Part shown: positions 1 through 3,488 of the stretch, piece by piece
How positions within the stretch are numbered: position 1 is the first letter of the stretch
Layout of the letters: each line of letters begins with the position of its first letter
Virus record (IMG/VR): IMGVR_UViG_2671180460_000009
From: a virus
Taxonomy: Duplodnaviria; Heunggongvirae; Uroviricota; Caudoviricetes
Strand: one strand, 5' to 3'
DNA: 4,314 bases
Translations under genes and position numbers: made by a program
The notes under the pieces: generated by a model
The model's database searches: none
What the model was told of the DNA's origin: nothing
What the model saw: only the letters and a program-made list of their open reading frames with translations

Positions 1-315
1 CATCTGAGTGACGGTTCTTTATGGGATCGCCAGGCTTTTCCGGACACCACAATCCTTGAGATCCGTCCCCGGAAAAGACTGAAACATGCAGGTGATGGTG
101 GCAACAGTGGCGGTCTGCTCAGTTTCACATCGGCACATACCGACGCCTGGCGTCAGCAGGGCTACGAGGACACGATGTTGACGATGGAGCATATCCGGAA
201 ACCGCTGGCGGCGCGTCAGGTACTGTCCCGGTCAGAAACGGTGTTGCAGAAAAGTCTGGAGAAAACGGAAGAGGCAGATTCGGCACTGAGAAACGCGATG
301 GCCCGGATTAAATAA
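1..315 (+). CDS. 3' end of an upstream protein-coding gene (5' end outside window); possibly the island GTPase (YfjP/YkfA/YeeP family), but identity not established
   Basis: Frame 1 is open from position 1 to TAA at 313..315 (105 codons, checked codon by codon); GC-rich, coding-like composition; followed by an intrinsic terminator. The GTPase guess is only by synteny with K-12 CP4 islands, where a GTPase precedes the DUF932 gene. Confidence 0.6.
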   Translation, partial: HLSDGSLWDRQAFPDTTILEIRPRKRLKHAGDGGNSGGLLSFTSAHTDAWRQQGYEDTMLTMEHIRKPLAARQVLSRSETVLQKSLEKTEEADSALRNAMARIK

Positions 316-902: not shown

Positions 903-1027
903 TTGATAACGTGGTGTAAAACACCTCAGTTTAATTTAATACAGTGAGTGAAAATGAATATCATAAAAATATTTTCTGCTTCAGATGTCACATATTTTAT
1001 TAACTGAATGATTAACAGGAGAATCAG

Positions 1028-1567
1028 ATGAACTGGCATTATGAAAAAAATGGTGTACGTTATGATAACGTAACAGAGGAAGATATTATTGAACGTATCC
1101 GCCGTGGTGAACTGAATGCATCAACACTGGTGTGGCAATAGGGCATGCTGGAATGGCAGCCAGTTTCAGCCACATCACTGGCGGAAATACTGAAACAAAG
1201 TGAAGTTCCTCCGGCCCTTCCGGGTCACCGCATTCCCGGAGGCGTTGTCTGGACGCTGGCATTTGCCCCTTTGATTGGATACATACTTGAGATGTGGACT
1301 GCCGGGCTGAACGGTATGTCATTTGAACGGGCTTATGATGCAGTCAGCGAAGGCCAGTACTGGTTTATCTCTCTGATTCTGAATATTGCTCTGGGATATC
1401 TGGATGAACGAAAACTCCGTAAATCTGGCGTGGATACCACAGCATTTGGCTGGCTGGCATGGTTGATCCCGGTTTATCTGTGGCGTCGGGCAAAAATCCT
1501 CGGGCAAAAACCTGCTTATTTCTGGGTCTGGTTGGTTATGCTGATACTGGTGTTATTTACGGTCTGA
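1028..1567 (+). pseudogene. DUF4339 (GYF-like) domain fused to a 3-4 helix membrane region, interrupted by an in-frame amber codon at 1139..1141
   Basis: ATG 1028 has a strong AGGAG at 1017..1021 (6 nt spacing) and encodes MNWHYEKNGVRYDNVTEEDIIERIRRGELNASTLVWQ, then TAG, then the same frame continues as GMLEWQPVSA... into the 1145..1567 ORF. The W-Y-x-NG ... TLVW-x-x-GM-x-W pattern matches DUF4339 as I remember it, and the stop falls inside that motif. Downstream hydrophobic runs (VVWTLAFAPLIGYILEMWTAGL, YWFISLILNIALGYL, AFGWLAWLIPVYLW, AYFWVWLVMLILVLFTV) look like TM helices. ATG 1145 has no convincing RBS. Confidence 0.65.
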
Positions 1568-2669: not shown

Positions 2670-3488
2670 ATGCGACTAGCCAGTCGTTTTGGTTATGCGA
2701 ACCAGATACGCCGTGACCGTCCGCTGACACACGAAGAACTGATGCACTATGTGCCGGGGATTTTCGGGGAAGATAAACACACGTCCCGAAGCCAGAACTA
2801 TACGTACATCCCCACCATCACCGTACTGGAAAGCCTGCAGCGGGAGGGCTTTCAGCCCTTCTTCGCCTGTCAGACCCGCGTACGTGACCCGGGCCGCCGG
2901 GAATACACCAAACACATGTTGCGTCTGCGGCGGGCCGGAGAGATAAACGGACAACATGTCCCTGAAATTATTCTGCTCAACTCCCATGACGGTACCTCCA
3001 GCTACCAGATGCTGCCGGGTTACTTCAGGTTCATCTGCCAGAACGGCTGCGTCTGTGGTCAGTCTCTGGGGGAAGTGCGTGTTCCACACCGGGGAAATGT
3101 AGTGGAGAAAGTTATCGAAGGGGCTTACGAGGTGGTGGGCGTGTTTGACCGGATAGAGGAGAAGCGTGATGCCATGCAGTCGCTGGACCTGCCGCCACCG
3201 GCACGCCAGGCGCTGGCACAGGCGGCACTGACTTACCGTTATGGTGACGAACATCAGCCCGTCACCACCGCCGACATTCTGACGCCACGACGCCGGGAGG
3301 ATTACGGTAAGGACCTGTGGAGTACTTATCAGACCATCCAGGAGAATATGCTGAAAGGCGGGATTTCCGGTCGCAGTGCAAAAGGAAAACGTATCCACAC
3401 CCGTGCCATTCACAGCATCGACACCGATATTAAGCTCAACCGCGCATTGTGGGTAATGGCAGAAACGCTGCTGGAGAGCCTGCGCTGA
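2670..3488 (+). CDS. DUF932 / UPF0380 family protein (YafZ/YfjQ-like)
   Basis: ATG 2670 with AAGGAG at 2658..2663 (6 nt spacing); 272 aa; the translation (MRLASRFG ... ILLNSHDGTSSYQM ... VIEGAYEV ... TPRRREDYGKDLW ... ENMLKGG) resembles the E. coli K-12 prophage UPF0380 proteins YafZ/YfjQ as I recall them; GC-rich backbone composition. Confidence 0.9.
   Translation: MRLASRFGYANQIRRDRPLTHEELMHYVPGIFGEDKHTSRSQNYTYIPTITVLESLQREGFQPFFACQTRVRDPGRREYTKHMLRLRRAGEINGQHVPEIILLNSHDGTSSYQMLPGYFRFICQNGCVCGQSLGEVRVPHRGNVVEKVIEGAYEVVGVFDRIEEKRDAMQSLDLPPPARQALAQAALTYRYGDEHQPVTTADILTPRRREDYGKDLWSTYQTIQENMLKGGISGRSAKGKRIHTRAIHSIDTDIKLNRALWVMAETLLESLR

Follow-up and report, generated by a model that had tools for sequence, protein, structure and literature searches.

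A C-to-T change to amber in a GYF_2 (DUF4339) membrane-protein gene: probably a young and rare nonsense allele of an Escherichia coli accessory island

The stretch of DNA considered here, a window of 4,314 nucleotides, carries on its plus strand, as all features described below, a gene (1028..1567) that is interrupted by an in-frame amber codon. The most probable explanation, whose probability can be put at roughly 0.8, is that position 1139 records a genuine, vertically inherited C-to-T transition which converted the glutamine codon CAG of residue 38 into TAG. With equal confidence the allele can be regarded, from its sequence, as a null or a strong hypomorph, which is to say a nascent pseudogene. 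It is an ordinary segregating nonsense allele and falls into a standard category, that of nonsense polymorphisms which affect accessory genes. The transition at 1139 would have given rise to a recent, low-frequency variant that has lost its function or is strongly hypomorphic, and this variant appears to segregate in natural E. coli beside lesions that arose in it independently.

The one-frame translation of 1028-1567 reads MNWHYEKNGVRYDNVTEEDIIERIRRGELNASTLVWQ, a stop, GMLEWQ...LFTV and a second stop. This single frame holds ATG 1028, the amber TAG at 1139-1141, a GGC at 1142-1144, a further ATG at 1145-1147 and TGA at 1565-1567, such that 37 codons (1028..1138) are followed by TAG, GGC and then the ATG, Met40 of the full-length protein, that opens a 140-codon open reading frame (ORF) at 1145..1567. 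The gene as a whole comprises 179 codons plus a stop, is the orthologue of the gene for WP_001104026.1 and equals the coding sequence (CDS) of FORC_069 except for T1139. The continuous frame, together with the intact 540-nt CDS of FORC_069, bears out the original prediction that an in-frame amber at 1139..1141 divides one gene; the remaining genes of the window terminate in TAA or TGA, the usual stops, and give no ground for a reassigned stop codon in E. coli. The first ATG is preceded, at a spacing of 6 nt, by the Shine-Dalgarno (SD) sequence AGGAG (1017..1021), whose duplex with the 3' end of 16S rRNA is worth -7.4 kcal/mol, in keeping with the strong ribosome-binding site (RBS) first proposed for it, and the six accepted starts of the window range from -5.9 to -8.7 kcal/mol. 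Ahead of ATG 1145 the best anti-SD duplex reaches only -3.5 kcal/mol, abuts the ATG and sits at the 45th percentile, about the median, among the 89 ATGs of the window. A duplex scan ahead of this ATG for an independent RBS of the 140-codon ORF found none, and the earlier remark that ATG 1145, 3 nt past the stop, lacks an obvious RBS is thus upheld. Further 5' of the gene a weak promoter-like site, TTAATA-17-TATCAT (936..964), is a match to consensus only, in a region where the number of such sites is not above shuffled expectation.

Fundamental to the interpretation of the amber codon is the comparison with intact copies of the gene. A 701-nt query taken from the region matched 78 of 5426 complete E. 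coli genomes, every one of which (78/78) annotates a single 540-nt CDS as 'DUF4339 domain-containing protein'. With a 53-nt query centred on codon 38, 79 copies were recovered in the 78 genomes, each with exactly one mismatch, and the TAG-bearing 53-mer was found at 100% in none of these 79 copies. The codon itself was read directly in seven intact E. coli copies (L001-L005, L026/L027) and is CAG each time. If T1139 is replaced by C, the window gene equals that of FORC_069 across all 537 coding nucleotides, and the base in codon 38 is the only difference between the two sequences from 876 to 1746 (871 nt) and over 201 aligned columns. The proteins WP_001104026.1 (FORC_069, ACN001) and WP_001104022.1 (GN02350) represent the same gene at the same island position; the former, in FORC_069, shares 539 of 540 nt with the window, which differs from it in having TAG for CAG and could yield the 179-aa product only via read-through. 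The premature stop therefore lies in a frame that is continuous in the orthologues and, as judged by the sense codon that these carry, it is derived. Both the nonsense mutation and the kind of single base change that had been suggested for it, such as CAG to TAG, are what the alignment returned.

Might the amber instead be an error of sequencing or assembly, the true base at 1139 being C? This would fit with the single base that separates the window from the intact allele, and with the fact that the TAG is in no complete RefSeq genome. Against it, the identical TAG occurs in at least 15 loci fetched from NCBI and Logan, which come from different projects and years, one of them on a contig of 2.9 Mb and another on a contig of 313 kb. 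Twelve fetched loci match the window gene at 540 of 540 positions, TAG included; the TAG-identical loci include GCA_009901405.1, GCA_009900825.1, GCA_009901465.1 and GCA_011318555.1, and, among those derived from the SRA, SRR25437168, SRR24464931 and SRR9091951. The allele of the window is carried by GCA_049157965.1 as well. Moreover, on a second genetic background (termed B, that of the window being A) the TAG lies 12 nt from a B-specific SNP, in the same k-mers and reads, and this linkage in single reads rules out an assembly chimera. With the same allele in at least 12 fetched loci of different projects, the sequencing error that the original prediction had entertained can be discarded, and the likelihood of a true C at 1139 is vanishingly small.

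Over the 2.6 to 4.3 kb that each TAG-identical locus shares with the window, 1-8 bases are different, which places the window in a small clade with slight divergence after the mutation arose. In a product look-up across a large assembly collection the 140-aa ORF was found in 63 index blocks and 46 contigs and the 37-aa ORF in 59 index blocks and 44 contigs, and the intact parent proteins are present on at least 996 contigs (A-type) and on 831 contigs (B-type), the TAG alleles making up about 1-3% of the carriers of each background. The exact TAG pattern gave no match in GTDB representative genomes, JGI metagenome contigs and IMG/VR, from which the carrier strains are absent, and the CAG pattern was likewise without match in IMG/VR, so that these scans carry no information on the frequency of the allele. 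The stop is real, derived, recent and rare, and of the possibilities raised at the outset it is the fresh nonsense pseudogene that describes it best.

What is lost can be judged from the intact protein. The orthologue matches the Pfam family GYF_2 (PF14237, formerly DUF4339) over residues 3-48 with 45.7 bits, and the 37-aa piece by itself still scores 29.1 bits against profile positions 1-35 of 50, the gathering cut-off being 25.8 bits. In an AF2 model of the intact protein (mean pLDDT 85.9) the N-terminus forms strands at 3-7 and 10-15, a helix at 17-25 and a strand at 34-37, followed by a short linker. Foldseek matched this model to solved GYF domains in the PDB with probability 1.0, although at modest E values of 0.0085-0.05, the TM score normalised to the target being 0.53-0.67 and the top matches covering 55-68 aligned columns; ranks 1, 2 and 6 are chains of TOC-TIC/TIC complexes and ranks 3-5 are the GYF domains of GIGYF2, GltJ and GIGYF1. 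Membership of GYF_2/DUF4339 is thus observed at the level of both sequence and fold. The N-terminal 48 residues resemble the GYF domains of Myxococcus xanthus GltJ (7z3c) and human GIGYF1/2 (7rup, 7ruq), from which the present protein differs in carrying a small helical membrane module behind its GYF domain, the latter being cut after strand 3 in the window allele. The codons 1-37 (1028..1138) retain strand, strand, helix and strand, as supported by Pfam, model and alignment. From the position of the stop in the AF2 model and the alignment, the amber is predicted to sever the GYF fold past its third strand, with loss of the invariant W43.

In an alignment of 23 family sequences W36 and W43 are invariant and the GM at 39-40 is largely conserved, so that the stop falls between the two invariant tryptophans of T-L-V-W-x-x-G-M-x-x-W, inside the DUF4339 motif as had been claimed. 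That description can be refined, in that only the neighbours of position 38 are conserved and residue 38 itself is not: it is Q, P, A, K, V, T, N or S, a sense residue in 23 of 23 aligned sequences.

Past the stop the 140-codon ORF encodes the remainder of the GYF domain, a PPALPG linker and the predicted membrane module, and it is homologous to the C-terminal part of the 179-aa orthologues; together with the GYF_2 score of the 37-aa piece, this shows that the two ORFs are not neighbours by accident. The linker (codons 61-66, 1208..1225), in which P61, P62 and L64 are invariant, leads from the GYF domain to the first membrane helix, and the module itself (codons 72-178, 1241..1561) is predicted as helices at 72-94, 99-107, 112-132, 137-158 and 163-178, with pLDDT mostly 87-94 and hydrophobicity highest around residues 78-82 and 166-170. 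Pfam returned nothing for the 140-aa piece, and the membrane module was likewise without a model in Pfam or NCBIfam and without a counterpart in the PDB, where Foldseek matched the GYF part alone. The NCBIfam search gave just a far-sub-threshold match to GltJ over the GYF region (16.3 bits against a cut-off of 450 bits), PADLOC had no match for the GYF protein, and a full-text literature search on DUF4339 returned nothing related. The module, a domain without a name, is widespread: 662 representatives were recovered at E <= 1e-3, in which it is joined to one or two GYF_2 domains or to a zinc ribbon, or makes up the whole of a protein of 106-124 aa. Homologues that span the full length (178-204 aa) are found in Citrobacter, Yersinia, Salmonella, Buttiauxella, Serratia, Hafnia and the betaproteobacterium Saezia, and dN/dS between intact E. 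coli alleles is 0.05-0.39, a value that reflects purifying selection on the intact gene. By these sequence measures the full-length architecture is ancestral and constrained.

The gene has been damaged in other ways as well. For instance, the start codon ATG is AGG in two loci (L008, L013), and an A7 homopolymer within codons 6-8 (1045..1051) acts as a slippage site, with A6 (L010, L012, L029-L031) or A9 (L028) in other assemblies giving frameshift alleles. L012 resembles a noisy long-read assembly, and part of the slippage variants may be artefacts. Alleles with a C-terminal frameshift are known from E. coli (P0038, with 47 contigs, and P0015), a Shigella allele (P0072) is disrupted by IS1, and frameshifted homologues exist in Klebsiella (P0076, 157 contigs) and Salmonella (P0075). 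The window itself also holds a DUF905 remnant, which the FORC_069 annotation calls frameshifted. This gene decays repeatedly, and such decay is the ordinary erosion of accessory-island genes.

A quite different reading would have the UAG decoded, by an amber-suppressor tRNA, programmed read-through or recoding, with the full-length protein as the main product. Near-cognate reading of UAG by tRNA-Gln restores glutamine and would here give the wild-type residue. Downstream restarts after amber codons are likewise familiar, as with the restart fragments of lacI. Amber alleles of important genes, moreover, exist in some E. coli strains, as with codon 33 of rpoS in K-12 stocks, which similarly is an early TAG that segregates between strains (PMC2700278). 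Both the lacI and the rpoS amber alleles have, as here, an in-frame start shortly downstream and hence a possible N-terminally truncated product; they differ in that their restart product or phenotype was shown by experiment, the present case being known from sequence. Decoding as the main outcome is countered by the stop not being conserved, since apart from the two TAG alleles every orthologue has a sense codon at this variable residue, and by the tRNA content of the region, where scans found no tRNA gene in the window and tRNA-Ser(GGA) alone in the flanks. Programmed recoding or suppression was rejected on the same two grounds, the non-conserved stop and the want of a suppressor tRNA in window and flanks, and this reading must be considered extremely improbable.

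A nonsense allele with a nearby start codon can also be viewed as a split gene, in which reinitiation at ATG 1145 would yield a used 140-aa membrane module, either as a neomorph or in de-regulated form. The geometry is suitable for termination-reinitiation, with a gap of 3 nt between stop and start (TAG GGC ATG) and an AGGAG SD on the upstream ORF. In E. coli reporters, SD-less second cistrons with the AUG at -4 to +3 nt from the stop were translated solely by reinitiation, 3-8-fold below SD-containing controls and still at about the level of sub-optimal natural mRNAs, the exception being a directly juxtaposed UAAAUG (PMC3592434). Given this precedent and the position of ATG 1145 only 3 nt past the stop, it is plausible that weak SD-less reinitiation furnishes the 140-aa fragment at a lowered level. 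The reading also draws on the family, since standalone modules of 106-124 aa and versions with a zinc ribbon in place of GYF exist, and on the 140-aa ORF having been spared by every N-terminal lesion found. The natural module-alone members of the family tell against plain loss of function, and a free membrane module is by analogy biologically not absurd, as the module does occur by itself.

The sparing of the 140-aa ORF is, however, an artefact of ascertainment, because the N-terminal-lesion alleles were found by exact searches with the 140-aa or 37-aa products and so were selected through that ORF. C-terminal frameshift alleles occur too (P0038, P0015 and the homologues P0075/P0076 above), no SD has evolved ahead of ATG 1145, M40 belongs to the conserved GM motif and is no dedicated start, and the allele remains at about 1-3% per background and is missing from the 78 complete genomes. 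A natural two-gene arrangement was also considered and rejected, the second ORF being without its own RBS and the split occurring only in two alleles that are each one base from an intact one. Relatives that possess the same two ORFs with an independent RBS, which would have spoken for such an arrangement, did not emerge, for the split relatives carry either the same allele or the B allele, none of them with an RBS. A functional split gene is therefore unlikely, if the least improbable of the alternatives. The 140-aa ORF is intact, with 0 substitutions, in every TAG carrier; this is what a very young pseudogene predicts and is also compatible with continued use.

The gene resides in a CP4-44-like integrative island, located at serW in the closest TAG-bearing relatives, with the order GTPase, Ag43, dynamin-like, YjcZ, patatin, YfjT, GYF-membrane gene, DUF932, antirestriction, RadC and CbeA/CbtA; the window terminates in the RadC gene and holds no integration site. 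With E. coli islands of the CP4-44, CP4-57 and CP4-6 type, as represented by the gene content of K-12, the island has in common flanking genes for a YeeP-like GTPase, Ag43, YfjT/YkfB, DUF905 and DUF932, further genes for antirestriction, RadC, DUF987, CbeA/CbtA and DUF4942, and insertion at a tRNA gene. Unlike these it has the dynamin-like/YjcZ/patatin trio together with the GYF-membrane gene, sits at serW or serX, and is found in 78 of 5426 complete genomes only. The A allele adjoins tRNA-Ser(GGA), infA, aat and cydC, that is serW, and the sister island of the B allele adjoins ghrA-ycdX-ycdY-ycdZ-csgG, which is presumably the serX neighbourhood from the gene order of K-12.

The same stop is present on both backgrounds, which is mildly unexpected if decay is purely neutral. 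The B allele, found via the 37-aa peptide in three loci (L016, L018, L019), is 14 of 540 nt away from the window and keeps TAG at codon 38; GCA_000937415.1, GCA_964041595.1 and SRR21109072 are among the carriers of this type. With T changed to C it is the intact gene of GN02350, and the B TAG island differs from the GN02350 island at three positions in about 4.8 kb, the TAG among them. Each TAG allele is thus one base from an extant intact allele, the parents being separated by a dS of about 0.10. The sites closest to the stop that tell A from B are 1127 and 1210, both of which are in the B state in the B-TAG allele. As the sequences stand, the shared stop could be explained either by the mutation having recurred or by gene conversion over a patch of at most 82 bp.

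Recurrence at codon 38, through a mutational hot spot or through positive selection that favours an inactivated or decapitated protein, is suggested by the same C-to-T on alleles 14/540 nt apart in separate serW- and serX-linked islands, each otherwise equal to its intact counterpart. The gene offers 29 GC-to-AT nonsense sites and 79 nonsense changes altogether, so that chance coincidence would be 1/29 (or 1/79), and further independent N-terminal lesions are known. Set against this, a conversion patch between co-resident sister islands, bounded by the markers 1127 and 1210, accounts equally well for the pattern; both island types are held together by strain A10, and a conversion-like patch of 6 SNPs in 48 bp (3140-3187), which sets the window apart from its closest relatives, is present in the same lineage. 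The B background was, in addition, found by an exact 37-aa peptide search that is sensitive to this site alone, and both TAG alleles are rare. Nor does the local sequence favour a hot spot, as there is no CCWGG (Dcm) site anywhere in the gene, which rules out Dcm deamination, and no repeat of at least 7 nt, whether direct or inverted, spans the codon 38 site, which rules out templated mutagenesis by quasi-palindrome or direct repeat. Recurrence driven in this manner is consequently improbable. A third candidate TAG background, an O145-like 140-aa product (P0229), was rejected, since a frameshift in the A7 tract probably accounts for it: its C-terminus is shared by a 170-aa product in which the QQ is intact, and the longest contig is of 338,690 bp in both.

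Less probable again is the combined proposal that the codon 38 amber recurs in the serW and serX islands and that reinitiation frees a GYF-less membrane module which alters the behaviour of the island. If this were true, the decapitated product would mimic the natural standalone members of the membrane-module family.

For the nascent pseudogene, which remains the preferred interpretation, the loss of product follows from the truncated GYF fold and the lack of an SD before ATG 1145. A 37-aa GYF fragment would be made that is probably unable to complete its fold, and the 140-aa membrane fragment would appear at most in reduced amount, through SD-less termination-reinitiation at ATG 1145; near-cognate read-through of UAG may add traces of the full-length protein. 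From established knowledge, the 137-aa gene at 1837-2250 could conceivably suffer some Rho-dependent polarity, as a 423-nt stretch would be exposed if untranslated and a search from 1567 to 1837 gave no terminator-like site.

The finding is of use mainly to annotation, in which the pair of 37-aa and 140-aa ORFs, here and in about 44 public contigs, is best treated as a single DUF4339/GYF_2 gene disrupted by a nonsense codon and not as two genes. That two backgrounds share the stop is the sole mildly surprising element, and a minor curiosity. The allele provides a small documented case of the erosion of an accessory-island gene in natural E. coli, in which nonsense mutation, loss of the start codon, slippage in a homopolymer and apparent conversion of short patches between sister islands are the types of change seen.

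Besides the amber codon at codon 38 (1139-1141), other types of damage towards the N-terminal end of the same gene are seen in other assemblies. In two loci, L008 and L013, the start codon at the equivalent of window 1028-1030 has changed from ATG to AGG and codon 38 is CAG; this loss of the start is a third way, independent of the others, in which the N-terminal part of the gene has been damaged. Length changes are also seen in a homopolymer of seven A residues that spans codons 6-8 (1045-1051), which is reduced to A6 or extended to A9 in loci L010, L012 and L028-L031. Either change puts the gene out of frame, with the 140-aa ORF (1145-1567) again left over, and some of these variants may be homopolymer errors of long-read sequencing. 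A mirror image of the lesion in the window gene is found in homologues from Salmonella (P0075) and Klebsiella pneumoniae (P0076, 157 contigs), where a frameshift lies directly past the 'VPP' of the linker, such that the resulting 99-aa products keep the GYF domain and lose the membrane module.

The allele of the window and its sister allele, which also carries TAG, reside in sister islands in two different chromosomal neighbourhoods. The island of the window type adjoins a tRNA-Ser(GGA) gene (L007 12911-12998 and L011 8376-8463) beside infA-aat-cydCD, that is, serW, and the sister type adjoins ghrA-ycdX-ycdY-ycdZ-csgG (16760-20114 in L032 and L033), which we take to be the serX region of K-12; strain A10 harbours both. 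The closest TAG-bearing relatives of the window (L006, L007, L011 and L015) are near-identical to it apart from six SNPs within 48 bp of the DUF932 gene (3140-3187), a cluster that looks like a short gene-conversion patch with a paralogous CP4-like island as its source. A similar cluster, of four SNPs at 741-875, separates the window from the E. coli strains FORC_069 and ACN001, in which the gene is intact.

A second decayed gene within the window is the remnant of a DUF905-family gene (2347-2528), annotated as frameshifted in the orthologous region of FORC_069. Just 5' of the window (L006 4818-9171) there is a tight, overlapping trio that encodes a dynamin-like GTPase, a YjcZ/RdcB-family protein and a patatin-like phospholipase, the terminal part of the patatin gene occupying window 1-315. 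For this trio PADLOC returned weak matches only, to LeoBC (5e-5), ZorA (2e-5) and a phospholipase effector (1e-4). Terminator-like GC-rich hairpins followed by a T-run were identified by eye after the patatin gene (316-360), after the 137-aa gene (2300-2336) and before the DUF932 gene (2590-2625); the hairpin at ~2300-2336 was not picked up by an automatic scan that covered 850-2400, probably because its loop exceeds 8 nt.

Directly C-terminal of the GYF domain lies an invariant PPxL motif, which in the window reads PPALPGHR (1208-1231, codons 61-68). Eukaryotic GYF domains bind proline-rich ligands of the PPGHR type, which PPALPGHR resembles, and it is pure speculation that the motif could serve as an intramolecular ligand of its own GYF domain. 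The helical membrane module that follows (1241-1561, codons 72-178) is not covered by any Pfam or NCBIfam model, and no structure in the PDB matches it. With 662 cluster representatives at E <= 1e-3, partnered across the family with one or two GYF_2 domains, with a zinc ribbon or with none, this C-terminal module is a widespread domain without a name.
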